Of a DNA stretch of 64,000 nucleotides, positions 5,187 through 62,412 are shown in pieces. The notes under the pieces are model-generated. The model had not been told where the DNA came from and searched no databases. It was given only the letters and a program-made list of their open reading frames with translations. The DNA comes from Azolla caroliniana (lineage: Eukaryota; Plantae; Polypodiophyta). Location: assembly GCA_043228905.1 (NCBI GenBank), contig JBHGNT010000008.1, forward strand, positions 9,424,001-9,488,000. Reading direction: 5' to 3'. The translations under genes were made by a program, and so were the position numbers. Numbering within the stretch: position 1 is the stretch's first letter; each line of letters begins with the position of its first letter.

Positions 5187-5254
5187 CATATGACGTAGGG
5201 GTAGTCAGCCTATACATGTCAAACCGAGGACGGAAGCATTGGGAGGCCATCAAG

Positions 5255-5717
5255 TGTTATTGCTAGGGCCGAACAACAACCTAACACAGGGTGTCCACTT
5301 AAGACACGTCACCAAAGGGTGGTACGGTAGAATGACTTACGTCACAACGCTTAATTAGACCTTAATCGATTAATTAGCCATCTGTAATTAACACGCGTAA
5401 GATATGACAATAATTATAGAACGGTAATCAACACTTGAAGATTAAGACAATAAGCTTTATTAATTATCCGCTCTTGATTACATTGTAACCGGGCCTTTAT
5501 ATAGGTCTCCGGTGCGAAATACAAAACGGTGCCAAACAACACCTTTACGGAATCGTTCCAAATCCGGATCGGCATACCGATTCCAGTCCGTCCGTCCACA
5601 TCTTCTTATATAATAATATGTATATATTAAGACTACTAATTACAATAGTTCCCGAATAACTATTCCTTTCACACTCTGGTTTGGACCTCCTTAAGCCTTC
5701 TTTGTCGGCCGGTAACA
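5255..5717 (-). repeat. 3' LTR of gypsy H (463 bp)
   Basis: Shares both ends with 25885-26111; TATA-like CCTATATAAAGG on the minus strand near 5500. Confidence 0.92.
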
Positions 5718-5719
5718 CA

Positions 5720-5763
5720 TGGCACGCCCATGGGACAGTACCTTGTACGTCGAACCCACTATC
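5720..5763 (-). other. tRNA-Arg(UCU)-like 3' half (T-arm, acceptor strand, CCA) at the PPT position of gypsy H
   Basis: Minus strand reads GATAGTGGGTTCGA-cgtacaaggtact-GTCCCATGGGCGTGCCA-TG-[LTR]; resembles the plant tRNA-Arg(UCU) 3' end GATTGTGGGTTCGAGTCCCACTGGGCGTG-CCA (recalled from memory). Confidence 0.65.
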
Positions 5764-5852: not shown

Positions 5853-8532
5853 CTACTGTTGTTGTTTCGTTTGTGGTTGTGGCTCTGTTTGTCGCTCTAG
5901 CACTGGTGTTTCCGTCGTTGGTTCCTCCGTCGGAGTTGTCTGTGGCTGACTGACCCTGGCCTGTTCCCCCTCCGGTCTTTGCACCGGCGACGGTTCGTCA
6001 TCACTAAGGTTGACCGTTGCCGCCTTTCGTGCTTTTTCTTCTCGGAGCCGGGACCACTCATAGCTTTTGAACTGGATTTGAGCCTCCAGCCGATCATCGT
6101 CCAGTTGAGCTATGAGCTGCCGGACCTGCACCAATTGTTCATCTGCCAGGGCTGTGAAATCTTCCACCAGCTCGTCCCTGATGGTGGTGAAGTCCTCTGA
6201 GGTCAGCATATAGCAGTCGTCGCCCTCCTTTCGCCGGTTTTCAACGTCCGCCCTAAGCAATTGGAGTTCCGCGGTATTCTGCGCCCATTTTGCCCACCAA
6301 CGCACAAAGCTGTCATCAATCAAGCTTTTGGTTTTAGTGAGCCATGACCGGAGGATGCATTGGATCCGTTCGACTCCCATCTGTGATTTATTTTCTGCGG
6401 CTTGTCGCTCTTCCTTCAACTGCTTGATGATCCAAACCGTGTCCGCCTCCTGCTCCCTATAATGCGACAATTGAGTTTGATAGGTTGTTTGCAACCTCTG
6501 TAGTACCATTGTCACTCTTTCCTTGTCTTCATGGTTCTGTTTGTGGAGCTCCATCCGGTCATTCGCCACTTCCCAATAGCCTGGAACTTTCCGCTCGTTC
6601 TTCGGCGAGTGCCGTTGTGGCCTTATCAACCTCTTGCCGGAGCTCGGCCATCCGTTGCTGATGCTCCGTCTCCAACTGCTTGTAGTCCCGATGCAGATGA
6701 TCGAAATCATCGGTCTTTTGCTTCAGCCTTTGGTTTATCTAACGGCGCACGCGGTCCTCCCAGTCCTTCTGTTGCCAGAGCTCTTCCTTCAGCCGCTCGA
6801 TTTCCGTTTCCGCCATCCATCGCAGCTTGTCTTTTTCCTGCAACACTTTCTCTTTTTCCTCCTTCAGCCGGTTGTAAGCATTATGTCCTTTACGCAGGTT
6901 TTCCTCTGCACGGCAAAGGTTCTCAGCAGTCTTTCTTAATTCTTCTTCGGCCGCCTTCTTCAAGTCGCGTTCGCGGCTCCGTAATGATTCTTGTGCGGCT
7001 AGCTCATCTCGTAATTCCGCAAGCTCTTAGGCTTGCGTCACCTCTATCTCCGGGACAGTTTGTGTCTCCGGGGTCTTATTCTTCTGTACATCAACCAGAG
7101 TCACCGGTGCTTGGACCTGCATTGCGGTTAAGGCCATTTTGGCCATATCTCCTGTGATCTGATCCAAGTCTTGTTCTAGGCACCGGATCCTTGACCAGGC
7201 CGTCTCCAGTTCATCGGTTGTGACGAGCAACCGTTCCGTTTGCGCTCTTTCCTCCGCCTCTATGCATCCGACTACTCCGACAATTTGATCTCCTATCCAC
7301 CGGAGCCATTGGCTACCGGTGCACTGTTGTGGCGCTTGCACGGAAAGTTGGCTGATGGGTTCACTCGTCGGTGGTTGGTCCCGCCTTTCTGCGTCAAGCT
7401 GCGCTTCTGGTTCTGCTAGCTGACCACTTTGCCGTTCCGGCTCAACGTGTGTTTCGTCTAGTCGCCCCTTGTCTTCTTGTTCTTGGCTGGCTGGGGCGGT
7501 TGGCCTTTGTATCTCTGGCTCTTGGGTGACGGGGCTTGCCGGTGCTGCCTGTTGTGCTCGGACTTCTGTGACCGGTTCCATCCGAACCGGTTCCGGTGCC
7601 TCCCTTGGCGTGGGTTGCTCAGCGTGAGTTACGGGTGTTCCATCCTTCTATGGGTCCAAACGTTTCCCGGCTGATTCTGTGGTGCTCTTCACCGGCCGCC
7701 GCTGGAGGTGCTCCGTGGGTTCTTCCGCCATCTCTTCCGCCTGAGTCCCGGCATTCATTCTTGCCGCCAAGGTGTCCGTTTCCTGTTGCGCCAGTCGGTG
7801 GAGTGGGCTCTTCAAGGCCCGTGTCGGTGTCTCCTCGTGCGTGTCCGTTGGTCGCTTCCGGCTGGCGCGCTCCTTCGCCGCCTTCTCTGCTTCGACAGTC
7901 TTCCCCTTAGTGGCCTTGGAAGCCAACAGTTGTTGCCGTTTTGAAGCAGGTTTTGGGGTGCCGTCCGTTGCTCTCCCCCGCTTCTCGGTTTGGATGGGCT
8001 CGACCGGTGACACCAACAGGGTGAGCCATTGTGTCACCGCATGCCATATTTTCCGGCCTTCCTTGCCGTCCTTTCCCCTTACTATATCAATGGTCGTACA
8101 CAGCCCATCGGCGATCAGCACCGGCCAATCTACCTTGACCCCTTCGTACGTTGTGATGATCAATCCTGCTCGGTTCTGAGGCATGACGGGGGGTCGAGGG
8201 TACACGTGGCCGAACTCGTGGAGCACACGGGCAATTTCCCAGAATAGCATATCTTCGCCGCCCTGTGTCCTATAGCCCTTGCTGGCTAGAGAGTACTCAC
8301 CGAAATATTTGATGAGTTGCTCGGGGGTAGGATTGTCGATCGTGTAGATACTGCCCTTCGGAAGGCCTATTAACGCACGGATCGCATCCTCCGTGATCAC
8401 CTCCGTGTCGATTTCTTTTATAATCTTCTCGGGCTCCTTGTGTAGCACTGCCTCCATGATCGTTAAGAAACCCTCCAGACCGTGCTGCCGTAACCATTTC
8501 TTGGCGGCTTCAGACAGCATTTGGCAGTCCAT
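5853..8532 (-). pseudogene. Extra ORF of gypsy H (about 900 codons, frameshifted): N-terminal globular region, Q/E/P/T-rich linker, C-terminal coiled coil
   Basis: Colinear minus-strand ORFs 7648-8811 (Met at 8532, MDCQMLSEAA), 7027-7581, 6739-6963 and 5853-6710 lie between the pol stop (8967) and the 3' LTR. Confidence 0.7.
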
Positions 8533-8966
8533 CTCTGCGTCGAGGTCGGAGAGCGTTGGAGAGGTTTGATGGTGGGGAGAATGTGAGAGAGAAAGTTCTG
8601 AGGGAGGGGATTCTTTGTGTGCGAGCTCTCTACGATTTATCTTCACGCGTCGCTTTGCGTCTGTTCTCCTTGGTTCGCGATTGGAGAAGGTCTCAATGCG
8701 TGGGGGTTTTTCTCTCTGCATCTTGGCGCCTTTTTCGATCCTCCGCATGTGCGGGTCGTGTACTATAATAGCATTGTGTGCCATGTGGCGGTGGTTTAAT
8801 GTCCTATTCATATCTCCTCGTACCTTTTCGACGTGCCTCTTTACTCCTCGTGTGCATGGCCGTTTCCACCACTCCTTTCCATGATTTATTTGATTCGCCC
8901 CTTTATTCTCTTCTTCTTCTTTTATTTTATTTTATTTATTTTAATTTTTTAAACTTACTTGTGTGG

Positions 8967-9074
8967 TTAGTTGTTCTCCGGTCCTATCGGAACTTTGCCC
9001 GAAGCGTGCAACTCACCGGCCTCTTGTCGGTTTGCCGTTGTTCTGCTCTCCTCGGTTGACGGCTCATGCTCCTC
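8967..9074 (-). pseudogene. C-terminal tail of gypsy H integrase, separated by the copia B insertion
   Basis: ...YHQASKE (20161 side) continues as EHEPSTEESR...GPENN* after removing element B and one TCCTC. Confidence 0.7.
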
Positions 9075-9507
9075 TATAAACGTGAGTGTCTGCGGAAGTG
9101 TAAAACAGAGAACAACACAGAGAGAGAGAGAGAGAGAGAGAGGGACAGAGAGAGCACAACGTAATTTCAAAATTATATCAGGACTCAGTATACACATTGT
9201 GCTAAGTAGCACTATTTATACAAGTCCTCTTGGGACTGACAGAAGTACCATGTACTTCAATGCTCACACGAGCATCTGACACTTACTACTAGACTATAGC
9301 TACCTAGTAGTCTATCCTATACTAGGCTTCCGATTGGACTTCCGGTTACGGATTGCACCCGGCCTCCACCGCTTGCCGGTTCGGTTGCTCACCATCATAC
9401 CGATCCGTCTCGCCCGATCCGTCTTGCTTACCGGCTCCGGCTTATTCAGCCGATCCGGCTCCGGCTTATTCAGCCGATCCGGCTCCGGTTGAGCTTGCCG
9501 TTCAACA
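9075..9507 (-). repeat. 3' LTR of copia B
   Basis: Direct repeat of 19749-20155; contains (GA)n and two copies of a 24-bp unit; terminal CA mutated to TA. Confidence 0.92.
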
Positions 9508-9636
9508 CTCCCCCTCAAGCTCAACCTGAGGTGGGGTCGTAGTGTCGATCTCTGTGACAATCGGTTCTTCCAACCGACTTCTCCTGGCGTCACTCCACCT
9601 TGCTCGCGTTCCTCGTTTGGTCCGGTCCCTTTGGTT

Positions 9637-10354
9637 CTACGCGCCTCGACCCTCTCGGTCGGCATGTCTGCTCAATAGGCCCATCTCAGCACTTACGTTG
9701 TTGTGACTCTGGCGCTTGCCGATCCGTCGGTTCTCCCACGATGGCATCGACTTCCGCTGTGTCCGTGTCCCCTTGGCCTTCAGTCGATCCGACTCATCCG
9801 GATCCATCTGTTGGTCCGAGTCAGTTGTCTCCGACTCGTTCCAGCTCTTGTCCGAATCGGTACACTCCGATTCGACTTCCGGCTTAAGGCCTCTCACCAC
9901 ATCGGACCACATCTGAGTCTTGGCCTTCTCCATGCTTCCCTCGGCTTCTTCAGCCGGTGAACCGAAATCGAATTCTTCATTCGACTCCGCATCACCGTAG
10001 GTCAACTTCACCGCTCAGGACCCGCTCACGCACGAAGTGGTAGTGCACCTCGATGTGCTTTGTGCGAGCATGGAACAAAGGGTTCCTGGCGAGCTGCAGG
10101 CTGCTCATGTTATCGCAGTCAATCAGGATCGGGGTCGGTACCTCGATCCGCAAGTCTCGCAGCAGTCGTCGAAGCCAGATGGCTTCACAAGTGGCAACGG
10201 TAGCGGCCCGGTACTCAGCCTCAGTGCTTGACAACGCCACTGTGGGTTGCTTCTTGCTGCTCCACGCAACGGCCGCGCTACCTATGGAGAACATGTATCC
10301 GGAAGTGGAGCGTCGATCAGACGCATTGCCGGCCCAGTCAGCATCTGTGTAACC
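9637..10354 (-). pseudogene. Copia B RNase H and charged 3' extension
   Basis: GYTDADWAG...SSTEAEYRA...[14 protein letters not shown] in ORF 9992-10429; ORF 9637-10011 is homologous to 52180-52434. Confidence 0.85.
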
Positions 10355-11037
10355 TGTTGAACACCGCGCTCGGCCACAACCGAGAAATAGGATCAAATCA
10401 CAGAAAACAGGAAATACGAAATGCTCCAAAACAATAGAGAGAAGAGTACACAGTATGTTTTACGTGGAAAACCCTAAATGGGAAAAACCACGTGAGTCCT
10501 CAAACTCCAACTCACACTATACACAGAGATGTACAATGGTGAAGCTACAAGGCAACAACCTTGAGCTCACTGTCTTCGCCACAGGTGGCGGCAATACACA
10601 GAGGCGTCGACCTCTTCCTTTCTCTCTCTCTCTCTCGGCTGCTCTCACTCCGCTCTCTCGGCTAGAACATAAAATGAGCAACAACAAGAAACTGTTTGCC
10701 CTAAGTCATATTTATACACATATGACTTTCGGGCTATTTACAAATATAGCCTCAAGGGCTCTTGGCAAACATATTCACAAATATGTCCCCGCATCCGGAT
10801 CTCTCTCCGGGTACACTCATCATCCGGCTCCGTAGCCGGGGTCTTCATCATCCGGCTCCGTAGCCGGGTCTTCGTCATCCGGCTCCGTAACCGGGTCTTC
10901 GTCATCCGGCTCCGTAACCGGGGTCTCTTCATCCGGCTTCATGCCGGGTACTCTTCATCATCCGGTTCCGTAATCGGAACCGGGCTTGCCGTCATTCATC
11001 TCCGGACATCCCATCCGGAGGGACCGAAATCCCAACA
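10355..11037 (-). repeat. 3' LTR of copia C
   Basis: TGTTGAACACC...CCCAACA; about 27-bp CATCCGGCTCCGTA tandem units at 10820-10975. Confidence 0.97.
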
Positions 11038-11047
11038 AACTCCCCCT

Positions 11048-14000
11048 TCACTTCGGCATGGGATGTCTCTCCAATCCGATCCTCTTCCGGCATGCTTCTA
11101 GCTTGTCGGGTGTGAGCACTTTGGTCAGCATATCTGACCCGTTCTCGTCCGTGTGGATCTTCGTCAACACGAACTCCTGGTCTTCTATCCTTTCCCGGAT
11201 CCAGTGATATCTTCGCTGGATGTGCTTCGTCCGGGAGTGATAGGCCGCGTTCTTCGCAAGGTGGATGGCACTCTGACTGTCGCAGTAGAGTCGGTACTCC
11301 TCCTGCCGGATACCGAGCTCTCTAATGAAGTCCTTCATCCATATTATTTCCTTGCCGGCTTCAACAGCCGCCATGTACTCCGCCTCCGTGGTTGACAACG
11401 CAACCGTCTTCTGCAGCCTCGACTGCCACGAAACAGCTCCCCCTGCATACGTCATCACATACCCTGATGTGGACCGGCTGGTATCTGCATCAGCCGACAT
11501 ATCCGAATCGGTAAATCCATCGAGTTCGGGCTTACCGGAGCCGAATCGGAGGCACACGTTTGCCGTGCCCTTCAGGTATCGGAGTGTCCATTTGACCGCG
11601 TTCCAGTGCTCCTTGCCGGGGTTACTCATGTACCGGCTCACCACTCCGACTGCATATCCTATGTCCGGTCTTGTACACACCATTGCGTACATCAAGCTTC
11701 CGACGGCAGAGGCATATGGTACTTTCATCATGTCCTCCTTCTCAGCCTTTGTCTTGGGACTTTGCTTGCCGGATAACTTGCAGTTTGTCGGGAGGGTTGA
11801 TCCGACCGGTCTTGCTTCCGACATGTTGAACCGTTGAAGCACCTTTGTCACGTACTTCTCCTGTGACAACCACAACTGCTTCTTCTTCCGGTCCCGGATG
11901 ATGTGCATCCCTAGTATTTGCCTCGCCGGACCCAGGTCTTTCATTGAGAAGGTTCGGTAAAGAGCCTTCTTCAGCATCCGTATCTTGACCTGGTCCCGTC
12001 CGACGATCAACATGTCGTCCACGTACAGGAGGAGTATTAGAGAGTCTCCTCCGTCGAACTTCTTCACAAACACGCAGTGGTCGGACTGCGTTTTGTGGTA
12101 CCCTTCATCGGTCATGAAGGAGTCAAACTTTCGGTACCATTGCCGGGGAGCCTGCTTCAGACCGTAAAGGCTCTTCTTCAACCGGCATACCAGGTGCTCC
12201 TTCCCTTTCTTCTCGAATCCTTCCGGTTGCTGCATGTATATCTCTTCTTCGAGGTCACCGTGAAGGAATGCCGTCTTCACGTCCATCTGTTGTACCTCGA
12301 GGTCCATGCTTGCCGCTATGCTCAGCACCGTCCGGATGGAGGTCATCTTCACTACCGGGGCAAATATCTCGTCGAAGTCGACGCGCTTCTTCTGCTGGAA
12401 CCCCTTCACCACGATCCTGGCTTTGTATCTCGGGGGGTTTTCGGCATCTCCCGGTTTCATCTTGAACACCCACTTGTTACGGAGTGCCCGTTTTCCTTTC
12501 GGCAACTCCACAAGTTCATATGTGTGGTTCTCATGCAGGGAATCCATCTCGTCCTGCATGGCACTCAACCACCTGCGGCTCTTGGTGTCATGCTTTGCTT
12601 CTTCAAAGCTCTCCGGCTCCCCTTCATCGGTTAGCAGCACGTGCTCTGGTTCCGGAAATCTCCAGGGGGCCCTTCTCTCTCTTAGAGGATATCTCCGTTC
12701 CGGAGCTTCGGTAACCGGTTCTTCCGATTCTTCTTCATCCGAATCCATTTCGGGATCGGGGCCGGTTCCGGTATCATTTTCATCTTCTTCGGCCGGTTCT
12801 GTTTCTTCACCGTCTTCGGCCGGATCTTCGAGTGTTAACCGGTCCCTTGCCGGTCGGGACTGCTCCTCGTAGAGTTGATTCTCACCGGTCGACTTGGAGC
12901 TCTTCATCTTTTTCTCCGACTCCCAGTCGGCGAGTGTCTTGTCCTCCATGAAGATGATATCTCGACTCCTGAATATCTTCTTGTCGACCGGGTCCCATAC
13001 TCGGTAGCCGAACTCGTCATCACCGTAACCGAGGAATATGCATGGCCGGGTCTTTGGATCTAGCTTTCCTCTCCGGTCCTTTGCCACATGCACGTATGCG
13101 AGACACCCGAACACCTTCAGATGCCGGTAGGAAACTTCCCTACCGGTCCACACTCTCTGCGGCGTGTCTCCGTCCAAAGGTACTGAGGGTGATCTGTTAA
13201 TCACGTATGTCGCCGTCGACATTGCCTCAGCCCAAAACCCCTTGGGTAATTTCGCATGCGCCAGCATACTCCGGACCCTCTCCATTATGGTCCGGTTCAT
13301 CCTCTCGGCCAGCCCGTTCAGTTCCGGCGTCTTCGGCACTGTAAACTCGAGCCGGATTCCCTTCGAGCGACAGTACTCCTGGAACTGCCCCCGGTATTCC
13401 CCTCCGTTATCCGCTCGTATCGCTTTCAGCTCCTTGCCGGATTCTCTTTCCACTCTCGCGTGGAGTTCTTTGAAGACGGACAATACTTGGTCCTTTGTCT
13501 TCAACGGTGCCGTCCACAGCTTCCGGTTGTGGTCATCAATGAATGTTACGAAGTACAGGGCTCCGCCATGTGACTTCGTTTCTACCTGACACACATCAGT
13601 ATGCACCAACTCCAATGGTGCGCTACGTCTCGTCGGTGGCCTTGAGTGGAAGGAGGCTCGGTTCTGCTTACCGGCCAGGCAGTCGGTGCACTTCTCCAGG
13701 TGCACATGCTTCACTGGAATGAGGTTGTCATCTGCAAGCCTCTTCATCCCCTTCTCACTCATGTGGCACAGTCTCTTGTGCCACAGCTCACCGGCAGTGT
13801 CAGCTGCCACGTTCAGCTCCTCCGGACATAGCCGGGAATTCATCAGGTACAGTGTGTTGACTTTCCGGGCCCGAGCCACTATCAGACTCCCCTTGCTGAA
13901 CTTCATGACACCGTTCCGGATGCTACCCGTGTAGCCTTCATCGTCTAGCCTCCCAGCCGAAATCAGGTTCAATCGAACCTCCGGAACGTGTCGAACATCC

Positions 14001-15121
14001 TTCAGCAGCATTTTGCATCCGGTTGATGTCATCAGCCACACGTCTCCTATGCCGGCAATCCGGCACGTACCTTCATTTCCCATCCGGACACAGCCATGCT
14101 CACCGGCTGTGTAGGATGAGAAGTATTTCTTCTCCGGGGTCAGGTGGAACGACGCTCCGGAATCGACCACCCAGGTCATCTCTTCTCCGGCAAGGTTCAG
14201 CTCCCTCTCTTCGGTAATGAGCATTATCTCTTCTTCACTTGCCGCGAGTGCCGTCGTTCCTTTCCGGTCCTGCCCTCGCCGATCCGGACCTCTCCGGTCC
14301 GTGGCTCCCCGGTATGCACCGTTTCGCTCCGGTGACTTCTTCGAATCGGTGTCGTCGGCTCCGTTGTCTTTTCGATAATGCCGACAATTCTTCCGGAAGT
14401 GCCCCGGCTTCCCACAGTGGAAGCATGTGGGCCTTCCTCTTGACTGCGACCGGGTCCCCGACTTCTCCCGTCTCTGCGGACTCCGGTTCCATTGTCTTCC
14501 CCGTTCCGATTCGGTAAGCAGCGCCTTCGAGTCGGAGGCCGGTTCTTTATCTCTCCGACGCGCTTCTTCGTTCAAAATACTTGTCTTTACCGTTTGTAGA
14601 GACAAGTTATCTTCGGTGCAGGAGGTGCTAAGAGTCACTACCAAGTTCTCCCAGCTTTCCGGCAATGTACACATCAGAATGATGGCTTGCATTGCATCCT
14701 CCAACGGGAACTTGATCGCCGCAAGCTGGTTCACGAATCCCATGAACGTGCTTACGTGTTCCACCATGCTCTCGCCGTCACGGTACTTGAGGTTCACTAT
14801 CTTCCTCATCAGGGAGGTCCGGTTCAACGCATTCTTCCTCTCGTAGAGGCCCGACAGCTTCCGCCACATCTCATATGCGTTGGTGTCGTTCGCCACATGT
14901 TGTAGAACGCTCACGTCGACGTATTGCCGAATGGTTGCAACGGCTTTCCGGTTCAGAAGCCTCCATTCCGTCTCAAGTACCCCCTTGGGTATTTCCGACC
15001 TGTCGATCGGTTCATACAGATCCCGAACAATGAGCAGGTCCTCCATCTTTATCTTCCAGTCGGCGTAGTTCTGCGCATTCAGCACCATCATCCCCGGCTG
15101 CCCGCTGCCGCCGCCTTCCAT
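11048..15121 (-). CDS. Copia Gag-Pol polyprotein (gag, CCHC zinc knuckle, protease, integrase, RT, RNase H), 1357 aa from the first ATG after the PBS
   Basis: Single ORF (track 11048..15232); CFHCGKPGHFRKNC, VVDSGASFH, WHKRLCH..CTDC, DNGGEY, LYVDDML, GFTDSD, TKHIQRRYHW. Confidence 0.97.
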   Translation of the reverse strand: MEGGGSGQPGMMVLNAQNYADWKIKMEDLLIVRDLYEPIDRSEIPKGVLETEWRLLNRKAVATIRQYVDVSVLQHVANDTNAYEMWRKLSGLYERKNALNRTSLMRKIVNLKYRDGESMVEHVSTFMGFVNQLAAIKFPLEDAMQAIILMCTLPESWENLVVTLSTSCTEDNLSLQTVKTSILNEEARRRDKEPASDSKALLTESERGRQWNRSPQRREKSGTRSQSRGRPTCFHCGKPGHFRKNCRHYRKDNGADDTDSKKSPERNGAYRGATDRRGPDRRGQDRKGTTALAASEEEIMLITEERELNLAGEEMTWVVDSGASFHLTPEKKYFSSYTAGEHGCVRMGNEGTCRIAGIGDVWLMTSTGCKMLLKDVRHVPEVRLNLISAGRLDDEGYTGSIRNGVMKFSKGSLIVARARKVNTLYLMNSRLCPEELNVAADTAGELWHKRLCHMSEKGMKRLADDNLIPVKHVHLEKCTDCLAGKQNRASFHSRPPTRRSAPLELVHTDVCQVETKSHGGALYFVTFIDDHNRKLWTAPLKTKDQVLSVFKELHARVERESGKELKAIRADNGGEYRGQFQEYCRSKGIRLEFTVPKTPELNGLAERMNRTIMERVRSMLAHAKLPKGFWAEAMSTATYVINRSPSVPLDGDTPQRVWTGREVSYRHLKVFGCLAYVHVAKDRRGKLDPKTRPCIFLGYGDDEFGYRVWDPVDKKIFRSRDIIFMEDKTLADWESEKKMKSSKSTGENQLYEEQSRPARDRLTLEDPAEDGEETEPAEEDENDTGTGPDPEMDSDEEESEEPVTEAPERRYPLRERRAPWRFPEPEHVLLTDEGEPESFEEAKHDTKSRRWLSAMQDEMDSLHENHTYELVELPKGKRALRNKWVFKMKPGDAENPPRYKARIVVKGFQQKKRVDFDEIFAPVVKMTSIRTVLSIAASMDLEVQQMDVKTAFLHGDLEEEIYMQQPEGFEKKGKEHLVCRLKKSLYGLKQAPRQWYRKFDSFMTDEGYHKTQSDHCVFVKKFDGGDSLILLLYVDDMLIVGRDQVKIRMLKKALYRTFSMKDLGPARQILGMHIIRDRKKKQLWLSQEKYVTKVLQRFNMSEARPVGSTLPTNCKLSGKQSPKTKAEKEDMMKVPYASAVGSLMYAMVCTRPDIGYAVGVVSRYMSNPGKEHWNAVKWTLRYLKGTANVCLRFGSGKPELDGFTDSDMSADADTSRSTSGYVMTYAGGAVSWQSRLQKTVALSTTEAEYMAAVEAGKEIIWMKDFIRELGIRQEEYRLYCDSQSAIHLAKNAAYHSRTKHIQRRYHWIRERIEDQEFVLTKIHTDENGSDMLTKVLTPDKLEACRKRIGLERHPMPK

Positions 15122-15136
15122 TTTCTGTGTTACCGT

Positions 15137-15149
15137 CGCTCTGATACCA
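15137..15149 (-). promoter_or_regulatory. Primer binding site (tRNA-iMet) of copia C
   Basis: TGGTATCAGAGCG, 3 nt from the 5' LTR. Confidence 0.92.
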
Positions 15150-15152
15150 CTT

Positions 15153-15835
15153 TGTTGAACACCGCGCTCGGCCACAACCGAGAAATAGGATCCAATCACA
15201 GAAAACAGGAAATACGAAATGCTCCAAAACAATAGAGAGAAGAGTACACAGTATGTTTTACGTGGAAAACCCTAAATGGGAAAAACCACGTGAGTCCTCA
15301 AACTCCAACTCACACTATACACAGAGATGTACAATGGTGAAGCTACAAGGCAACAACCTTGAGCTCACTGTCTTCGCCACAGGCGGCGGCAATACACAGA
15401 GGCGTCGACCTCTTCCTTTCTCTCTCTCTCTCTCGGCTGCTCTCACTCCGCTCTCTCGGCTAGAACATAAAATGAGCAACAACAAGAAACTGTTTGCCCT
15501 AAGTCATATTTATACACATATGACTTTCGGGCTATTTACAAATATAGCCTCAAGGGCTCTTGGCAAACATATTCACAAATATGTCCCCGCATCCGGATCT
15601 CTCTCCGGGTACACTCATCATCCGGCTCCGTAGCCGGGGTCTTCATCATCCGGCTCCGTAGCCGGGTCTTCGTCATCCGGCTCCGTAACCGGGTCTTCGT
15701 CATCCGGCTCCGTAACCGGGGTCTCTTCATCCGGCTTCATGCCGGGTACTCTTCATCATCCGGTTCCGTAATCGGAACCGGGCTTGCCGTCATTCATCTC
15801 CGGACATCCCATCCGGAGGGACCGAAATCCCAACA
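15153..15835 (-). repeat. 5' LTR of copia C
   Basis: Near-identical to 10355-11037. Confidence 0.97.
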
Positions 15836-15840
15836 TAACC

Positions 15841-18800
15841 GACAAGCTCTTCGGGTATACCTCGTCGGTATAGCAGTCCCCGGTCCTTAGTGCTGCTGAC
15901 ATACCGTAATATTCGTTGCGCGCACTGAAGGTGCTCCACAGTCGGCTTTTGCATGAACTGACTTACCATGCCGACCGGATAGCTGATGTCGGCTCGGGTG
16001 ATGGTTAAGTAGATCAGGCTTCCGACAACCTGTCGGAACCGTTTCTCAGTGCAGGCCGGTCCGGAGTTGGGATGGAGCTTCTGGTTCCGGTCCAGGGGTG
16101 TGGAGACAAGTCGGCAATCCGTCATGCCGAACTTATACAGCATATTCAACACGTAATGTCGTTGTGAGAGCAATATGCCGTCGGGGGTCCAGATCACTTC
16201 GATCCCAAGAAAATAATGAAGGTCCCCCAGGTCCTTCATTTCGAATGCGTCCGACAACTGGGACTTGACGCGGTTGATTTCGGGAAGACCCGGTCCGGTG
16301 ATGACTAAATCATCCACATACAAGAGTATACATACCGGACCGTCAGAGCCTTGCCGGATGAACAAGGAAGAGTCCGACTTAGAGACAGCAAACCCCAGCT
16401 TACGCAACCGGTGCGTGATCTTCGCATTCCAAGCTCGGGGGGCTTGCTTCAAGCCGTAAAGTGACTTCTTCAGTCGGCATAACGCCGATTTGTTCATCTC
16501 AGATTGAAATCCGGGGGACTGAGTCATAAAGACTTCTTCTTCAAGCTCTCCTTGAAGGAAGGCGTTCTTCACATCCATCTGGTGAAGATGCCACCCCCTT
16601 GCCGCAGCAACCGCCAGTACCACACGAACCGTCGTCATCTTCGCCACAGGAGCGAAGGTCTCGTCATAGTCAATTCCGTGGGTCTGCGCGTATCCCTTCG
16701 CCACTAACCAGGCTTTGTACCGGTTAACAGAACCGTCGGCGTTGTACTTGACCTTGTACACCCACTTGCATCCGATCGGTTTACAGTGACGGGGAGGATC
16801 AACTAGTTCCCAAGTTTCGTTGGCATCGAGTGCCCGCATTTCTTCGTCCATAGCGGCACACCAATTTGAGTCCTTTGCCACTTCTACGTAGCTCTGCGGC
16901 TCACGCACTTCTGTCACCTTAGTCATGTACGCATAATGATGCGCCATGTATTCATTGTACCCATACCGCATGACGGGATCCTTCTGACGGGTTGATCGGC
17001 GCAACGCACCGTCACCTGATTTGAGGCCCTTCTTGGCCAGTTCGGTCTTCATTGCCGAAGATCTGCCATTCTCCTTTCCGGAGTCGGATACGCACCGATC
17101 CGACTCATCGTTGCCGGTTTCAAATTCCGGCATCTTCCTCTTCCCTTTCTCTTTGCGCGTGAACCGTTTCCTCGGTTCCTTGCGCGGGGAGAGCACGACA
17201 GAGTCTCCACCACTTGCCGTCTCTTCATCCGACTGGTCCAACCGACTCAGTCGCTCGTTCGGTCCACTCAACCGTAACGATTCCGGACTCTCATCTTGAG
17301 TTCCGGCTTCATCATCCTCTGCCAGGGCTAATTCAGGCTCACTGGCCTGATCTTCCGACATTGGGTCGGGATCGGAAGTCGCAGTCAGTACGGAGTATCA
17401 GGATGCCGATTCATCGAACTCGACATCCCGGCTAACTCGGACTTCCTTCGTCCGGGGGTTATAGCACTTATACCCCTTTTGCTCTTGAGCATAGCCGACT
17501 AGGATGCATTTTTCCGATTTTGCATCCAGCTTTCTCCGCTTCTGATCCGGCACATGCACATACGCTATGCTGCCGAATATCCGAAGGTGTCTTAAGTTCG
17601 GCTTGCGCCTGAAATACAGCTCATGAGCTGACACCTTGTCACCAATGCGGTTTTGTATGTAGACGGCCGTCCGGACCGCCTCCGCCCAGTAGATCCGGGG
17701 CATGCTCTTCTCCTCCAGCATTGCCCTTGCCGCTTCGACGAGTGTCCGGTTCTTCCTTTCAGCCACACCGTTTTGCTCCGGTGTGTATCTGCAGCTAAAC
17801 TCTCGCCGAATTCCCTTCTGCTACAAATAACCAGTGAATTGGCCGGAAAAATATTCCTTTCCGCCATCCGACCGAAGGCATTTGATCTTCCTCTCCGATT
17901 CCCGTTCCACCATCTTCTGGAGGCTCCGGAAACAGTCGAAGACTTCGCTCTTCCGCTCAATGAGGTAGATCCAAGTATGTCGAGTATAGTCGTCGATGAA
18001 GGAGACGAAGTATCGGCTCCCGCCAAGGCTTACACTTTGTGCCGGTCCCCACACATCTGAATGGATGAGATCGAGCTTGTTACGGCTCTGGTTCCGTTCG
18101 GTGGGGAATGGAAGCCGGTGTTGCTTCCCAAGTTGGCAGGCTTCACAAATTTCGGCTCTCTGGCCGCTGAACTTCGGCAAACCGAAAACGACTTGTTTCG
18201 TTTGCAGGTCTTGAAGCCTCCGGTAGTTGATGTGGCCTATCCGCTTGTGCCACAGGTCGATGTCCGACTCGACCTTCTGTCGTTTCGCGAACAGAGCGGT
18301 GCCAAAGTCATTGGTGTTGAGGATAAACATCCTCCCATCTCTACGCCCTTGCGCAATGACTTCGCCCTCATCCTCAATGAAGCACCCGAGGTGCGTAAAC
18401 CGCACCTGCATCCCCTGGTCGACAATCTGACCGACGGACACCAGGTTCTTCGTGATTGTCGGAACGTGTAATACGTTCATTAGCTTCCCTTTCTGTCCGA
18501 CGTGGCTTAGAGGGACCTCTCCGACATGCATGATTGGGTGAGGAGTGTCGTCTCCGGTTTCGACTACTCCTGGTTGATCCGGTTTCTCCAGAAAGGAGAA
18601 CCACTCTTTGTGGCTCGTCATGTGGTTCGACACGCCGGAATCAACATACCACACTTCCTCCGTTTTGGAAGTGGTCTTCTTCATTGAGTTTGCCTTGTGA
18701 TTCATCACCAAGGCTGGCCCCTTACCGGCCTTTCCGGTTCCGGATCCTCCTGATCCGTTTGCGTAGTGCGAGTTTTGTCGGCCATCCTTACCGGATTTGT

Positions 18801-19654
18801 CCGAATCGGCACGCTTTCTCCAGCACTCGCTTTCCATGTGGCCTTTTTTGCCATAGTACCAGCATTCCATAGCAGATTTGTCTTGCCGGCCTCCGGCACC
18901 ACCTTGACTCCCCCTGCTTGTGGAAGTCCCGGAACTGCTGTCGGCACACTCATAGTGCCTTCGTTCCTGCTCTTGCCGGCTGCCTCCATTGCGTGCCGAC
19001 CCACCTCTTCCACCACGCCCACGGAACAGATCCGTTCCCGTGTACAGCATTCGGCTGTCCGGGGATGCACTGGTAGATGCACCGGCGTGGTTCTCCTCTA
19101 CAAGGAGCATCGACTGTAAGTCGAAGAATGAGGGGGGTATTCTCCCTTGTACACACCGCAGTCCGGAACGCTCCGAACTTGGACGCCAGGCCTCCGAGAC
19201 ATACCTGCACCATCTCGTCTTCCTCTATGGTAACATTGATAGAGGCGAGCGAGTCGCAGATCTCCTTTATCCGGCCCATGTAGTCTGCCACGAACATGTT
19301 CTTCTATCGAACATTGCTCAACTCCTGTCTGAGTTGCAGCTTCCGGGCAGTGGTGCTTGCGGCGAAAACCTTTTTCAGGTTCCCCCAAGCATCCTTCGGT
19401 GTCTTGGCGTCACGGATGTGGCTGAGCAGCTGATCGCCGACACTGGACGCGAAGCAGTACATCACCCTGCTTGCCGCCTGTTCCCATACCGAGAAGTCCT
19501 TGTGTGCCGAGTCGGGCGCCACATCATTCGCTCCTTCGACATAACTCCAGTACCCGTGTCCAAGCAGGTACTGGTGCATCTTGTAAGACCAGGATGCGTA
19601 GTTGCTCCTGTCGAGCTTCTCCACCGGGAGCGACGTAGCCATGCCTCTATCCAT
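15841..19654 (-). pseudogene. Copia B gag-PR-INT-RT with a few stops and frameshifts
   Basis: ORFs 19304-19654 and 18950-19297 (gag, KLDRSNYASW), 17821-19110 (WYVDSGVSNHM, INT), 17398-17766, 15790-17361 (RT, LYVDDLV). Confidence 0.92.
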
Positions 19655-19748
19655 GTCTTCTACTGTGTCTGTTTTCGACCTGTTAGGGTTTTCTTCTCAA
19701 GAGTAAATGTCTGCAGCAGAGGTTCTCAACCCTCGCGCTCTGATACCA

Positions 19749-20155
19749 TGTAAACGTGAGTGTCTGCGGAAGCGTAAAACAGAGAACAACACAGAGAGAG
19801 AGAGAGAGAGAGAGGGACAGAGAGAGCACAACGTAATTTCAAAATTATATCAGGACTCAGTATACACACTGTGCTAAGTAGCACTATTTATACAAGTCCT
19901 CTTGGGACTGACAGAAGTACCATGTACTTCAATGCTCACAGGAGCATCTAACACTTACTACTAGACTATAGCTACCTAGTAGTCTATCCTATACTAGGCT
20001 TCCGATTGGACTTCCGGTTACGGATTGCACCCGGCCTCCACCGCTTGCCGGTTCGGTTGCTCACCGTCATACCGATCCGTTTCGCCCGATCCGTCTCGCT
20101 TATCGGCTCCGGCTTATTCAGTCAATCCGGCTCCGGTTGAGCTTGCCGCTCAACA
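19749..20155 (-). repeat. 5' LTR of copia B
   Basis: TGTAAACGTGAG...CTCAACA; PBS at 19735-19748. Confidence 0.92.
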
Positions 20156-20160
20156 TCCTC

Positions 20161-23100
20161 CTTACTGGCTTGGTGGTAGCCGTTGTCTTCACCGGTTGCC
20201 GTTATGGTTGGCCTGCCGGTGTCTGATTCGGTGGCTACCCTTCGTTCAAATGGGTTCTTAGTCATAGGTCCTTTGTCTGGTTTTAATCTAAATCCGTTGA
20301 CCCATTTGCCCAGAACTTCTCCGGCAAGTGTCCCCAACTAGTAGGACCCATTGAACTCACGTGTGATCCAGTACGGTCCGGTCCATCTAAACCATAGTTT
20401 ACCTGGCATTTTGCCCATCTGGGTCTGGAACACGAGTACCGGCTTGCCGATCCCAAACATTTTTTCGTTTCCCTTCCGATGCTGATCTACAAATGCTTTC
20501 CGTCTCCGTTGTTCCAATTCCAGGTGCATAATGTTCGCCAGTCGGTGTTCTTCCAGTTTGCACAGAGCCTTTAACCGAATTGCCTCTGATTCCTTTTCGT
20601 TCAATCGTTCCCGAATCTAAATCCGTAAGCTTAGTACCTGGAACTCGACCGGCATGACTGCATCCAATCCGAATGCTAACCGGAACGGTGTTGTCCGGAT
20701 GCTTGTTTTGTACGTTGTCCGGTAAGCCCAGAGCGCACTGTGCAGCTTTGTGTCCCAATCTATCCGATTTTCATTGATGATCTTCCGGAGGATATTCTGG
20801 AGCGTTTTGTTCGTCGACTCAGCTAACCCATTTGCTTGCGGATAGTACGGTGAGCTTCTTTTATGTACCAACGCATAGAACGTCGTCAAACTTTCTACCA
20901 CCTGTCCAAGAAAGTGCCCTCCTTGGTCGCTTATAAGTTCTATGGGGCATCCGTACCGGCACCAAATGCATTTGTATAAGAATTTCACTGTTGACGCCGC
21001 GGTGTTGTCTCGTAGGGCTTCCGATTCCACCCACTTAGTGCAGTAATCCGTCGCAACGATCACGTACCGGTTGCCGGTTCTCATTGCTGGTGGTTTAAAT
21101 GGCCCGACGAAATCCAGCCCCCATTTTTGGAATGGTTCTAGTGGTAGGATTGGCTAGTGTGGCATCCGAGCTTGTTCCGTTGGCTGACCCATTCGTTGGC
21201 ATAGATCACACTCCGCATACCGGACTGCATCTTTCAATGTGGTTGGCCACCATAGGCTACTTTGCCATACTTTCCTTGCCGTCGCATCTCCGGCATAATG
21301 GCCTCCGGCGACTCCGCAGTGTGCCTCCCGTAGTATTACCTCCTTCTCGTCGCTGCGCACCATTGGTTGCCAGATACCGTCCGCACCTTTGTGGTATAGC
21401 ATGTCCTGTAATAAACAGAAGTGTTGGCTCTGTACCGCCAGGCGTTTTCTCTCATCCCGGTTCATCTCCTCCGAAGGCAATTCGGTACTCAGAAACTGGT
21501 GCATATTAGTTAGCCACTTATCTTCTTGTGCCACCGTTTCATCTGTTGCCGTTTCCGTGGTGACTCGAAAAAGCTCTGCATCCGGAAACTCGTCCGGTAC
21601 TCCGTCACCTGTCTCCCCGGAATCTAACCGGCTTAGATAATCTGCAACCGCATGTTGTATGCCAGGTCGGTGGAATATCTCGAATTCGAACTCTTGCAAC
21701 AACAAAGTCCATCGGGCCAGCTTACCGGTAAGTGACGCTTTGGATACTAGGTAGAGGAGTGCCGAATGATCCACATGGAAGGAGAACTTTCTTCCCAATA
21801 AATAATGCCTGAATTTTGTTACACTATAGATCATTCCTAAAGCTTCCCTTTCCGTGGTAGAATAATTTCGTTCCACTTGGGATAGCTTCCGGCTGGCATA
21901 GTACACTGGCCGGTACCACCTTGGCTCGGTAAGCTGCATGAGCGCACTGCCGATTGCGATATCGGAAGCGTCCACGAACACATGAAACTCTTTACTCCAA
22001 TCGCGAGGCTGCACTACCGGTGCTTGTGACAATAACAACTTTAGTGTCCGGTACACCTTGTCTTCGATGTCGGTCCATTGGAACGGTGTTCGGTGTACTG
22101 CCGCATGCAGAGGTGTAGCCAGGTCTGCCAAATATCGGAGCATACGGCTATGCCAGTTGATTTGTCCTAGGAAACGGCTCAATGCCTTTCTCGTTACCGG
22201 AGCCGGTGCTTCCCGGATTGCTTTCACTTTGTCCGGATCTACGGCAATGCCTTCCTTGCTTACTATATGCCCTAGTAGCGTTCCGCTGGACACTCCAAAT
22301 ACACACTTCGCCGGATTCAAGCTTAGCCGGTACGCCCTACACTTCTGTAGACATAGTCTGAGATGCTGCAAATGATCTTCTTCTCTACTATAGACGACGA
22401 AGTCATCAAGGAACAACTGCATAAAAGCCGGTATGTATTCGCCAAAGATCTCCATGATGATCCGTTGGAATGTTGCTGGTGTCGTTTTCAGCCCGAACAT
22501 CATCACCACCGCAACAAACACTCCCCATTCGGTGACGAAAGCCATTTTCTCTTGATCCTCAGGTTGCATCTAGATCTGATTATACCCGCTGAATCTGTCT
22601 AAGAAACTGTAGGCCGGCGACGGCATCCAAAACTGCATCCGTAAACAGAAGTGGAAATGCATCCGTTACCGTTGACGCATTGAGCTTCCGGTAGTCGACA
22701 CAAACTCTAATTTTTCCGTTCTTTTTCGGTATGACTACAATCGGGCTCAGCCATGTAGATTTCTTTACGGGACGGATGAAGCCGACCCTCAGTAATTTGT
22801 CGATCTCCTCCTTGACTTTGGCGGCGTAGTTTGGGTTCATCCGGTACCGACGCTGTGCTACCAGCTTGGCGTCTTTGCTCAGATGTATCTGGTGCTTATA
22901 CAAATGAGGATCCAAGCCTCTCATATCCTCGTACGACCAGGCAAAGACGTCGCGAAACTCGTTGAGGAGTGTAATTATTGCCATTTTGTTCTCTGCATTC
23001 ATTTCTTTGGCGATGTGCACCGGTTTTACCTCCTCTGTCGTTCCTAGATTTACCTCTTCTAATTGGGATGCTTTTACACGTTGGGATACGACCATTTCCC

Positions 23101-23833
23101 TTTCCAACGCCTCCTGCGCGTGCCGTAACTCCCGGATTGCTTCTTTATCCGGTTCCACTTCGGTTTCGTCCGATTGCAGTAAGTAGGGTGATATCGCTTC
23201 CGCGACGTCAATTTCGAATAGAGGTACAATCTTCGGGTTCTCCAGCAAGTACTGCTCTTCTTCTTCGTCTGCTAATCCTTCCAGCATATTGACACACTCC
23301 GCATATAACGGTGTCAGATCCGTGCCGGTGCCCTTCCTTTGTTGTGTTGGTACCCCTACCTTCGCTTTTCCCCACCGGAACGTAATCATATTCCTCCTCC
23401 AGTTCTGCTTGATATGTGCCGTTTTTAACCAAGGGCGTCCCAACAATAATGGGTACGCTCCTTGAGCTTGCAACTAGAGAACTATGGCTGAGATTCGGAA
23501 TGTGTGGCCCCCGATGGTTACTTCCAAATTCCGTATTAATCCTTTCGGTCGCACCGAGCTTGTGTCAGCCATTCGGAGCCAGAACGGACATGGCTCCCAC
23601 TCTCGGATTCCAAGAGCATCGCATGTCTGGAGGCTGATTACATTAACGCCGGAGCCTCCGTCTATTATCGTGCTGGGGAGTTCTTTCCCTTTCACAATGG
23701 CCGTAATTGCCGAACTGTTGGTGTCCACCACGGCTGGTCCCTTCTTAGGATTTGAGAAGAATGTCGGAGCCGGTGGTGTTCCGCCTGTCGTCATAGCTGC
23801 AAGAGTTGTCCTAACAGCAGCGTGATCTGGCAT
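20161..23833 (-). pseudogene. Gypsy H pol (protease, RT, RNase H, integrase with GPY/F), with stops and frameshifts
   Basis: IIDGGSGVNVI (PR); VCVDYRKLN and FLDDFVVYS (RT); VDASDIAIG and NYSTTEREAL (RH); H..C..C, ATDYCTKWVES and WTGPY (INT). Confidence 0.92.
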
Positions 23834-25829
23834 TCCTGCAATACCTGCCAGCGTTATCGGACTGACTACTTCCGGCGAGCTCTTCGGTGTTCTCCTTCTG
23901 TTACGCGAGTTCTGCTACGTTTCGCTCATTGGCCTTTTTTACCCATTCCGTTGCTTGTTTCCGGATGGCCTCTTGTGTCTCCCATTCCGTAGTATTCCCC
24001 TTCGACCTTGTGGTGACCTGCTGGAGGTCTGCAACTTCGGCGACTACCATGTTTACTGCCGGTCTCTTATCATAGCTTTTTGCCGGACATTGATTACTAT
24101 AATGTCCTTCTTGCTGGCAGTAATAGCAATATGCTTTCCGGGTGTTGTTGGATTCGGCATTGTTTCCTGTACCCGGTGGAGGACTTGTGGTAACCGCGGG
24201 GCTCTGTTTTGGTTGGCTGCTTGAGGCGCCTATTTCCGGTTCACGTGGGTGGCTCCCGTTTTTGAAATGCCGTTTTTTATTAAAGTTCTTTTTGTTGCGG
24301 TACCCTTGCCGGGGTTGGTCGTCATACCTCCCGTAATCTTCCCGTCGTTGGTGATACCCGGGGGACTGATTCCGGTTGTGATTCTCGTACCGTCCATTGT
24401 AATCTCGGTACTTGTCATATCTCTTGTACCGGTCGTAGTTGTCTCGCCGATTGTCGTACCGAACATCTTGTGCCGGTCGATATCACTCCTCTCGTTGCTA
24501 GTGTTCGTCTTCTTCGTCTCGGCTGCTACGTGGCTCAATTTGCTAGACTGGTGGAGCCTACCGATTCAATAAGTTATATTCGCACCGGTCCATCGTGTGG
24601 CTCGTAGATTGGCAGAGTAAGCAGTGCGTCCGCATGGTGCACTCCAGTGACGAGTGTTCGGAATTCAAGCAGGTCGTGCATTGGATTGCTTGCCGGAAAC
24701 GGAGATCCTCATCGGTTGGTAATGCTCATTGGAGGGCTCCCATTGTTAGCCAAGAGCTCGTTTTCTCCATTTCTCGAACTGGGTCGATGACCTGGTCGAC
24801 GGTGCTTGTGCGAAAGTCAATGACCGTGCATACCGTTCGTAGAGGTTCCCGGAGCACGGCTAAAATTATAGCCCGTGTTTCTTCCTCCGAAGGTGCGCGG
24901 GTAAGTTGATTGTGCATCCGTTGAAACCGAATGACAAAGTGTGGGATGCTCTCGCCAGGGTCCTGCCGAATTGTATAAAATAAGCCCACCATTTCTCGCT
25001 GATCCACCTCCTTCTGGAAGAAGTGCAAGAATTTATCTTTTAGGTCCGCAAAGGTGGTGATGGTGCTGCGATCCTGCGTCTGGTGCCATCTGGCGGCTGG
25101 TCCTTCTAATGTCACGCCGAATTCGGCTATCTTAGATCGTTCCTCTTCTGCCGCGGTTAACCGTTGTGACACATGGTTTGCTTCCCATGTTTGTTCAAAT
25201 GCGTGAACATGAGCCTCCGCATCCAGGTCATCCAAATACTTGGAGTATTGGAACGACATATCGTCGTCCGGTGTCGGTACACGGCCTGGCGGTGTCGGTG
25301 GTCTTTCCTGCTGTTCCGCCAGCGTCTGAGGTCTTTGCCGGTCTTCCTTTGGTGTTGCCGGCTCGACTTCCGGTGTTGGAGGTTTTTGCCAGTGTACTTC
25401 CGTCTCCGGAGGTTGCTCCACGACGAGTGTCAGAGGTTCTTAGTCTGCCAACTCTGGTTTCGGTGTCGGTAAAGTATCCGACTCCTCGTCCTCCGGTCCT
25501 CCTGGGGTGTCGTTACTGCTGCGATAGTTCGTATGCGCGTTGTAACCCCTTTCCGAATCTGATTCCAGTGCTGAAAATGCTTCGGATTCGCCGTCCCTTC
25601 AAGCCAAGGCCTGGAGAAGGGTTTCCGCTTCCTGGAGGCTGCTTCCTTCGTCTGGGTAGGCATTTTGTTGCAGACGGAGTGACTCCTCCGCCACTTTCCG
25701 GATCTCTTTGGAAAATGATCGATCCGTTCGGATTTCTTCCGCTGCTTGCTGGAAAGCCCCTCGTTGCCGTCTCCGTTCAGCAGGTCTTCGTGCTCTCTTC
25801 ATAACCGGGTCGTTTGTTGGCCTAGTCAT
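23834..25829 (-). pseudogene. Gypsy H gag (capsid plus zinc knuckles), frameshifted
   Basis: ORFs 25599-25829 and 24726-25421 (TLEGPAARWH..LKDKFLHFF..IRQDPGESI); Cys/His knuckles near 24580-24690 and 24085-24130. Confidence 0.8.
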
Positions 25830-25867
25830 CCATTCCTGTCGTTGTTCACTGCGATAATGCAGGAATC

Positions 25868-25877
25868 GTGGTCGCCA
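25868..25877 (-). promoter_or_regulatory. Primer binding site of gypsy H (tRNA-Arg UCG-like)
   Basis: TGGCGACCAC after the spacer CAGTTTT downstream of the 5' LTR. Confidence 0.65.
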
Positions 25878-25884
25878 AAAACTG

Positions 25885-26111
25885 TGTTATTGCTAGGGCC
25901 GGACAATAGCCTAACACAGGGTGTCCACTTAAGGCAATAATTACAGAATGGTAATCCGGACCTAGCAATACCGATTCCGGTCCGTCCGTCCACATCTTCT
26001 TATATAATAATATGTATATATTAAGACTACTAATTACAATAGTTCCCGAATAACTATTCCTTTCACACTCTGGTTTGGACCTCCTCAAGCCTTCTTTGCC
26101 GGCCGGTAACA
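25885..26111 (-). repeat. 5' LTR of gypsy H (227 bp, internally deleted)
   Basis: Same termini as 5255-5717 but lacks its central part. Confidence 0.9.
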
Positions 26112-26116
26112 TCAAG

Positions 26117-56705: not shown

Positions 56706-56709
56706 TCTT

Positions 56710-56726
56710 TGGTGAACCCGACGTGA
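56710..56726 (+). promoter_or_regulatory. Primer binding site complementary to tRNA-Trp
   Basis: TGGTGAACCCGACGTGA is complementary to the plant tRNA-Trp(CCA) 3' end TCACGTCGGGTTCA-CCA. Confidence 0.85.
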
Positions 56727-56758
56727 AACGAGGCAGTAGGAGGATATCAAGTACGAAG

Positions 56759-58936: not shown

Positions 58937-58990
58937 AGCGCACTATTGAAGCATGGGGCACAAATAGTCCAAGCAATCATAAGTCCCCAC
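58927..58990 (+). promoter_or_regulatory. Putative -1 ribosomal frameshift signal (G_GAT_TTT plus H-type pseudoknot)
   Basis: Heptamer directly before the gag-PR stop; -1 frame open; stems ACTATT/AATAGT and TGGGG/CCCCA; conserved at 54118-54183 on the minus strand. Confidence 0.7.
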
Positions 58991-62345: not shown

Positions 62346-62412
62346 TAAACAAAAATGAATCCTCACCAAAATTGGCACATACCGGTGGATGTGTAGGTTT
62401 GGCGGGGGCGAA

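Follow-up and report, generated by a model that had tools for sequence, protein, structure and literature searches.

Host tRNA-Arg as the likely plus-strand primer of an Azolla Ty3/gypsy lineage that lacks a polypurine tract

The window analysed here is a stretch of 64,000 nt from Azolla caroliniana (contig JBHGNT010000008.1, positions 9,424,001 to 9,488,000), and it carries a Ty3/gypsy element, termed H, on the minus strand at 5255-26111. H is bounded by identical 5-bp duplications of its target site (TSDs), TCAAG, at 5250-5254 and 26112-26116. The 3' LTR (5255-5717) spans 463 nt with TG...CA ends and a TATA box near 5494-5505 of the minus strand, and the 5' LTR (25885-26111) is reduced to 227 nt in the window copy by a deletion of its middle that includes the TATA box. 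Gag, zinc knuckle, protease region, RT, RNase H and integrase follow in Ty3/gypsy order at 20617-25439 on the minus strand, where stops interrupt the window copy. The RNase H retains all four acidic residues. Two nested copia elements that are foreign to H lie on the minus strand, one at about 9074-20136 and another within it at 10355-15835. With stops in its frames, the middle of the 5' LTR and its TATA box lost, and two nested copia, the window copy is dead. As the original prediction had it, H lies on the minus strand; gag, RT, RNase H, integrase, TATA box and 5' primer binding site (PBS) all agree on this, which rules out a wrongly assigned orientation.

An extra ORF region is found 3' of the integrase at 5853-8931 on the minus strand. 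It is broken in the window copy and common to the motif-bearing families described below, and a Pfam search of 5853-8931 gave no match. It was noted that the extra ORF is present in most motif-bearing families and is retained even in internally deleted copies; its product could have a role in tRNA loading or an envelope-like role. The relatives of H with intact length measure about 10-11 kb and include the extra ORF region. The window also holds a second gypsy element at 55437-63682 on the plus strand, with 1.27-kb LTRs and an ordinary purine tract, whose RT is very divergent (at most 32% identity to every row of the RT tree).

The 5' PBS of H occupies 25865-25877 on the minus strand, 7 nt from the LTR. 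The location had been proposed earlier and was retained, with the site extended from 25868-25877 alone to 13 nt. These 13 nt are complementary to host tRNA-Arg(UCG), the product of host gene L317, and the site is retained in most of 30 copies. A strict pattern identified no Arg(UCG) genes in the host, and a looser pattern identified two. Other motif-bearing families use Arg(UCU) at the 5' PBS too. Loci are given here by chromosome-style labels (C2, C16 and so on) with a Mb position, or by an L-number, in the host genome, which is labelled G000. At one locus, L228 (G000:C4:4077072), an H-like 5' leader is preceded by an 18-nt Arg(UCU) site where the Arg(UCG) PBS is expected, possibly reflecting a primer switch. 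Over-copied minus-strand primers were also encountered at the ordinary U5/PBS end (L091, L099, L100, L193, L227 and L233, the last at G000:C4:20101873), where the tRNA-Arg(UCU) sequence extends for 41 to about 56 nt and in L233 apparently comprises the whole tRNA.

We then turn to the position beside the 3' LTR. Purine tracts are present at copia A, copia B and the other gypsy of the window, and H has none. As had been noticed from the sequence, the polypurine tract (PPT) is absent before the 3' LTR of H and the site holds instead the 3' end of tRNA-Arg(UCU), placed 2 nt from the LTR. Reading outward from the LTR, a CA spacer of 2 nt (5718-5719, minus strand) separates the U3 end from the tRNA CCA end and is the same in 44/44 motifs of the H cluster; it is likely removed by integrase processing. 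A predicted inverted PBS follows at 5720-5736 on the plus strand, in which 17 nt match positions 59-76 of tRNA-Arg(UCU) with one base missing, such that the complementary sequence lies on the minus-strand cDNA. The 13-nt insert with a GTAC-3 nt-GTAC stem that had been reported is indeed there, at 5737-5749; it forms a 4-bp hairpin between tRNA positions 59 and 58 and splits the tRNA match exactly at A58. Comparison with the tRNA identified a second tRNA-complementary block at 5750-5763 on the plus strand, where 13/14 nt correspond to the T-loop and the 5' strand of the T-stem. The same order characterizes the family form (for example L032), with 17 of the last 18 tRNA nt and one base missing, then the insert, then 13/14 nt, and the window copy has one change beyond it. 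The symmetric CA dinucleotide earlier described at the inner LTR borders holds only for family H; elsewhere the spacers differ, with lengths of 2, 4 or 5 nt.

We aligned the motif to 45 distinct host tRNA genes of 13 anticodon types, which come from the retrieved loci and are part of the host set. The score with Arg(UCU) was 34 and the next best was 23, while 1000 shuffles of the motif against the tRNA genes gave a mean of 11.6 and a maximum of 22. The best match of the motif is therefore with Arg(UCU), above all 1000 shuffles, and a chance resemblance does not account for it. The isoacceptor named in the original prediction was correct, and the host genes differ in sequence from the plant tRNA-Arg(UCU) given there and include four isodecoders. 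CCA is not encoded in the host tRNA genes, so the motif matches the mature tRNA. No tRNA gene lies inside the window. Elsewhere in the host, tandem arrays of tRNA genes were observed at L061, L068, L069 (C5:17.99 Mb), L078 (C2:20.11 Mb), L079 and L080 (C11:0.69 Mb), containing Lys(UUU) with Asn variants, Ile(UAU) and Arg(UCU); repeated clusters of bacterial- or organelle-type tRNA genes occur at L063-L067, L075-L077 and L083-L090, mostly on small contigs.

The conservation of the site was assessed with a query taken from the ORF end, without the motif itself. The whole motif was found at the LTR in 29/30 loci, including the window's own locus, and the remaining locus has a deletion at the motif. 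No normal PPT was found in these copies, and the motif is accordingly not a one-off product of the window copy. A strict motif pattern gave 243 genome matches, compared to 0 for the reversed control. The 137 motif instances in the retrieved DNA fall into 25 U3 clusters, 18 of which have members in the host genome, and the spacer between CCA and LTR is family-specific at 2, 4 or 5 nt. Among 115 motif instances, themselves chosen by the motif, at most 9 purines occur in the last 15 nt, and no PPT is present. The RTs of the motif-bearing families are only 66-77% identical to the RT of H.

The hairpin in the insert covaries. Among 48 distinct inserts, 152/192 stem cells are Watson-Crick pairs, compared to a mean of 109 and a maximum of 129 in 2000 shuffles, a statistic that ignores kinship among the inserts. 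Stem position 2 alternates between T-A and G-C and position 3 between A-T and G-C, which are compensatory changes. Mismatches were distributed evenly by strand (12 vs 12), with neither strand favoured. The sense RNA of the site is predicted to fold into stem-loops, and by its sequence the motif can self-fold to give a longer stem, outside which about 10 nt beside the LTR would stay free as a toehold. In duplex predictions with RNA parameters, the tRNA pairs with both blocks and the insert is looped out. At T-loop position 55, the motifs frequently carry a T-to-C change, which would keep a wobble pair with the tRNA and spoil a tRNA mimic.

Non-autonomous 2.5-kb elements retain both tRNA sites. 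Two further non-autonomous elements of about 3 kb, L325 (C2:12.74 Mb) and L326 (C11:11.47 Mb), have an Arg(UCG)-type PBS, a split 3' site and a 4-nt spacer. Outside the host assembly, the motif pattern was found in 65 stretches of metagenome contigs, all from one accession series. The U3 ends of these stretches were 68-88% identical to those of the host genome (median 79%; 36/46 alignable), which indicates a related host and not a distant one. A search of viral contigs with the motif pattern gave 0 matches.

To place the lineage, we examined its structure and its RT. H has two TG...CA LTRs, a TSD, the gag-protease-RT-RNase H-integrase order and a tRNA-complementary PBS; the protease was matched weakly, in relatives P0001 and P0004. 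By every structural test but the PPT, H is a member of Ty3/gypsy. A 61-row RT-RNase H tree unites the motif-bearing families in a single clade (support 100/100), which sits in a 38-row group including liverwort and fern RTs (support 95/96) and stands apart from the chromoviruses and from two aRH-bearing rows. The 38-row group neighbours angiosperm rows with weak support (90/79), and we call these rows Athila-like by our own assignment, made without a reference set. No chromodomain was found in H or its relatives, and the RT falls outside the chromoviruses. The earlier Tat-type label could not be sustained, as Pfam identified no archaeal RNase H in H, P0001 or P0004 and the RT lies apart from the Tat rows. 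Phygy and Selgy, by the definition in the available text of a plant survey (PMC6317226), are short, with an interior taken up by the polyprotein and lacking an extra ORF; the length of 10-11 kb and the extra ORF do not fit them, and H does not show the Brassicaceae Athila traits of a conserved PPT junction and an Asn/Asp PBS.

The genome also preserves a record from which the primer can be assessed. By the established logic of normal replication, plus-strand strong-stop DNA is the template for the outer U3 end of a 5' LTR, and a primer which was not removed gets copied there (for U3 extensions, the available part of PMC13332604). The host tRNA would contribute an uninterrupted 18 nt, while the element's own site has 17 nt followed by the hairpin, and the two candidate primers can therefore be distinguished. 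We searched the genome for the unbroken host 18-mer with NN-TG behind it and obtained 69 matches, with 0 in the control. We examined 42 of the 69, the other 27 having mostly PBS-type spacers, and 11 of these represent 8 independent events in which host tRNA sequence is joined to a U3 end through the family's spacer. The other examined matches comprise 28 that are ordinary PBS-side sites or are without assignment (L188, L228, L231, L232, L234 and a few others were kept out of the count of primer copies in this way) and 3 that were dropped as slips: in L222, L240 and L241 the U3-end 18-mer runs on into the hairpin and is a one-base slip of the ordinary split site.

The eight primer copies differ in length. 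The element at C2:12.00 Mb, present in three duplicated copies, matches the tRNA over 57/57 nt. The copy extends for 18 nt at C16:17.53 Mb (two copies) and C20:0.88 Mb, for 18 nt with one mismatch at both C11:11.47 Mb and C11:1.42 Mb, and for 63 nt with three mismatches at C6:16.78 Mb. At C2:12.74 Mb it runs further, position 58 being mismatched, and at C3:8.09 Mb (L221) 18 nt are followed by a piece of the element hairpin and then by tRNA again. The copies thus stop at exactly 18 nt in four events, break at 18 in one and read on to about 47-63 nt in three. All 8 carry the host form and none the element's 17-nt split form. Five of the 8 are located at the outer end of a 5' LTR, a place where the plus-strand primer alone is expected to be copied, and the own 3' site of those elements is the split 17-nt form; 4 of these 5 have an Arg(UCG)-type 5' PBS, which excludes the minus-strand primer as the source of the Arg(UCU) copy. 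The copy in the C20 element matches a different host isodecoder from the element's own site, ends at 18 nt and jumps back into U3. The element at C16:17.53 Mb starts with three LTRs, and its junction consists of the U5 spacer, one extra T, the host 18-mer, an AG spacer and U3, with a 5-bp TSD flanking the whole; read from its sequence, this has the shape of a two-LTR junction from which the plus-strand primer was not removed.

It was noted that a 40-kb interval around the 57-nt primer-copy element (C2:11994001-12034000, L131-L134) contains very recent duplications at more than 99.6% identity, including a 6.9-kb copy that starts exactly at the LTR end. At L221:2070-2115 an LTR is directly followed by an apparent reversed 5' half of a tRNA gene, presumably of tRNA-Phe.

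Ordinary copies were searched for comparison. No tRNA end was found outside ordinary H 5' LTRs (0/25 with the outer end within the locus, from the 30 loci), and a search for clean two-LTR junctions, which would fix the normal end, gave 0. Sufficient flank was available for 81 split motifs, and 5 of them lie before an LTR plus PBS; all 5 are in C2:15.20-15.36 Mb and have element 3' sequence upstream, and none looks like a lone remnant of an element-RNA primer. In that same interval (L172-L175, L177), elements are joined head to tail via shared LTRs. The primer copies prove that joining of the tRNA to the U3 end happens, and they do not prove that it is the usual route. The first 9-11 nt are identical between the host tRNA and the element's site, and a template switch onto the tRNA after a few shared bases could yield similar copies; the L221 mosaic of tRNA and element hairpin indicates that template switches occur.

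From the conservation of the site and the host tRNA copies at U3 ends, we consider it quite probable that host tRNA-Arg(UCU), bound at the inverted site, primes the plus strand in place of a PPT. This was one of the two routes in the original prediction, the other being an element-encoded tRNA mimic, which is less favoured because the U3-end copies have the host sequence. In the proposed cycle, minus-strand synthesis in family H would start from tRNA-Arg(UCG) at the 5' PBS, and RNase H would remove the RNA and uncover the site on the minus-strand DNA. The 3' end of tRNA-Arg(UCU) may then pair with about 11 nt beside the LTR and extend this pairing to 17 + 13 nt by opening its T-arm, while the small hairpin of the DNA is looped out across from A58. 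RT would extend the CCA end across the 2-5 nt spacer into U3, after which the tRNA would normally be cut off and the spacer trimmed by integrase. An uncut tRNA would be copied by the minus strand, with a stop at m1A58 or read-through giving the genomic copies. Under this scheme neither strand of the site is templated by the primer, so the site is not re-copied from the tRNA in each cycle, and family-specific differences persist, as do the missing base, which is fixed, and the position-55 change from T to C.

Several other readings of the site were weighed against host tRNA priming. The element's own RNA might resist RNase H at the site as a structured, CCA-ended piece and prime as a PPT does, with host tRNA entering only through occasional template switches. 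The sense RNA does end in CCA at the priming position and can fold, its hairpin covaries, and the L221 mosaic copy fits such switching. However, 8/8 U3-end copies are of the host form, none of the 81 split motifs looks like a lone remnant of such a primer, and a self-primer has no need to resemble a host tRNA over 30 nt, for which reasons we regard it as unlikely. An 18-nt 3' fragment of the tRNA, in place of the whole molecule, could leave the four or five of 8 copies that end at 18 nt, which is also a usual length of 3' tRNA fragments. The three copies that run to about 47-63 nt show instead that a long tRNA was attached, and the conserved second block pairs with the T-arm, which is absent from such a fragment; 18 nt is also where the m1A58 stop falls (available text of PMC13191261), and a fragment as the usual primer seems highly improbable.

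A role of the site outside priming was also considered, in which it would bind a tRNA for packaging, for RNA circularisation with the 5' PBS or for strand transfer, and the plus strand would start by another non-purine route. Where a family has Arg(UCU) at both ends, its 5' PBS can pair with its 3' site by complementarity, and in L220, L230 and L246 the U5 end plus an 18-nt PBS copy runs into the reversed hairpin and 3' region, likely through transfer of plus-strand strong-stop DNA onto the sense 3' site, which is possible because both sites match the same tRNA. The Ty3 bipartite PBS likewise has a part in U3, as given in the available text of PMC5371799. In family H, however, the two sites match different tRNAs, the 3' site on the RNA has tRNA sense and cannot pair with a tRNA, and the CCA is fixed 2-5 nt from the LTR with a spacer that the primer copies keep, so that we judge such a role very unlikely. 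The idea that the motif is a frozen, functionless copying accident carried along by an expanding family draws on the common occurrence of over-copied primer tRNA at the ordinary U5/PBS end in this genome. A single accident is ruled out by the 29/30 conservation and the 243 vs 0 pattern matches, and with the motif kept across many unrelated LTRs and RTs of 66-77% identity to that of H, a hairpin with compensatory changes and an adjacent sequence free of purine tracts, we give the frozen form next to no credence.

Priming by host tRNA at the inverted site therefore remains our preferred reading, and it can be compared with known systems. In the available text on Ty3 (PMC5371799), Arabidopsis Copia/Gypsy (PMC7197481) and HIV-1 (PMC13332604), an RNase H-resistant PPT within the element RNA serves as the plus-strand primer. 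All of these resemble H in having TG...CA LTR ends, a 5-bp TSD, a tRNA-type 5' PBS, an RT-RNase H-integrase with four acidic RNase H residues and a short spacer outside U3, and H differs from them in that the PPT position holds a site that is complementary to a host tRNA on the minus-strand DNA. Retroviral RT stops after 18 nt of the primer at m1A58 and sometimes reads through (PMC13191261, available text). By the portions of PMC13191261 and PMC13332604 that are available, HIV-1 shows the same alternative of stop or read-on as the H lineage, and its unremoved primers lengthen LTR ends as well; the known tRNA copies are located at the U5/PBS end and the known U3 extensions are PPT, whereas in the H lineage the tRNA copies are located at the U3 end.

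Among plant lineages, the available part of the survey (PMC6317226) describes three kinds of minus-strand primer and a PPT in most elements. By the same text, Athila, Tat/Ogre/Retand, Phygy and Selgy are like H as a set in having no chromodomain, an extra ORF 3' of the integrase, an AT-rich spacer before the PBS and tRNA-Arg priming, and the RT of H falls, as do those of Athila, Tat, Phygy and Selgy, among the non-chromoviruses. H differs from Tat in having no archaeal RNase H and, it appears, from the angiosperm Athila-like rows in its RT grouping. For Brassicaceae Athila, a conserved PPT junction and an Asn/Asp PBS are described in the available text of 10.64898/2026.03.20.713144, and a preprint on S. 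osmophilus reports ordinary PPTs in its available part. The bipartite PBS of Ty3 resembles H in that a site related to a tRNA lies near the element's 3' end (PMC5371799, available text), but in Ty3 this site pairs the RNA with the primer of the minus strand and the PPT is kept, while in H the site is of tRNA sense on the RNA and stands in place of the PPT. Helenus TRIMs are a further case of tRNA-derived sequence in an LTR element; there it acts as a Pol III promoter within the LTR, the elements have a PBS as well as a PPT, and the author of PMC10886601 found no role in priming. In the literature searched, which covered few subscription journals and not the supplements, no description of tRNA priming of the plus strand was found. 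The new part is the proposed priming route, and the element is otherwise Ty3/gypsy in structure.

Taken over the lineage, it is likely that a whole clade of plant Ty3/gypsy elements has given up the PPT and starts both strands from host tRNAs, in some families from two different ones (Arg-UCG for the minus strand and Arg-UCU for the plus strand), with a hairpin-split site on single-stranded cDNA and primer copies preserved at U3 ends. The cited papers, in their available text, treat second-strand priming from a PPT as the general case in retroviruses and LTR retrotransposons. Pipelines that demand a PPT, or that orient elements by the best PBS, would miss or invert elements of this kind, and the primer copies allow the idea to be tested from sequence in any related genome. 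If the proposed route is true, the lineage would provide a natural system in which to study the choice and removal of plus-strand primers by RT and the loading of a tRNA onto single-stranded DNA, and tRNA-Arg levels, m1A58 and 3' tRNA fragments would be predicted to govern a second transposition step. That a successful, high-copy lineage works with a host tRNA on DNA as the template would then mean that the PPT rule is not a biochemical necessity.
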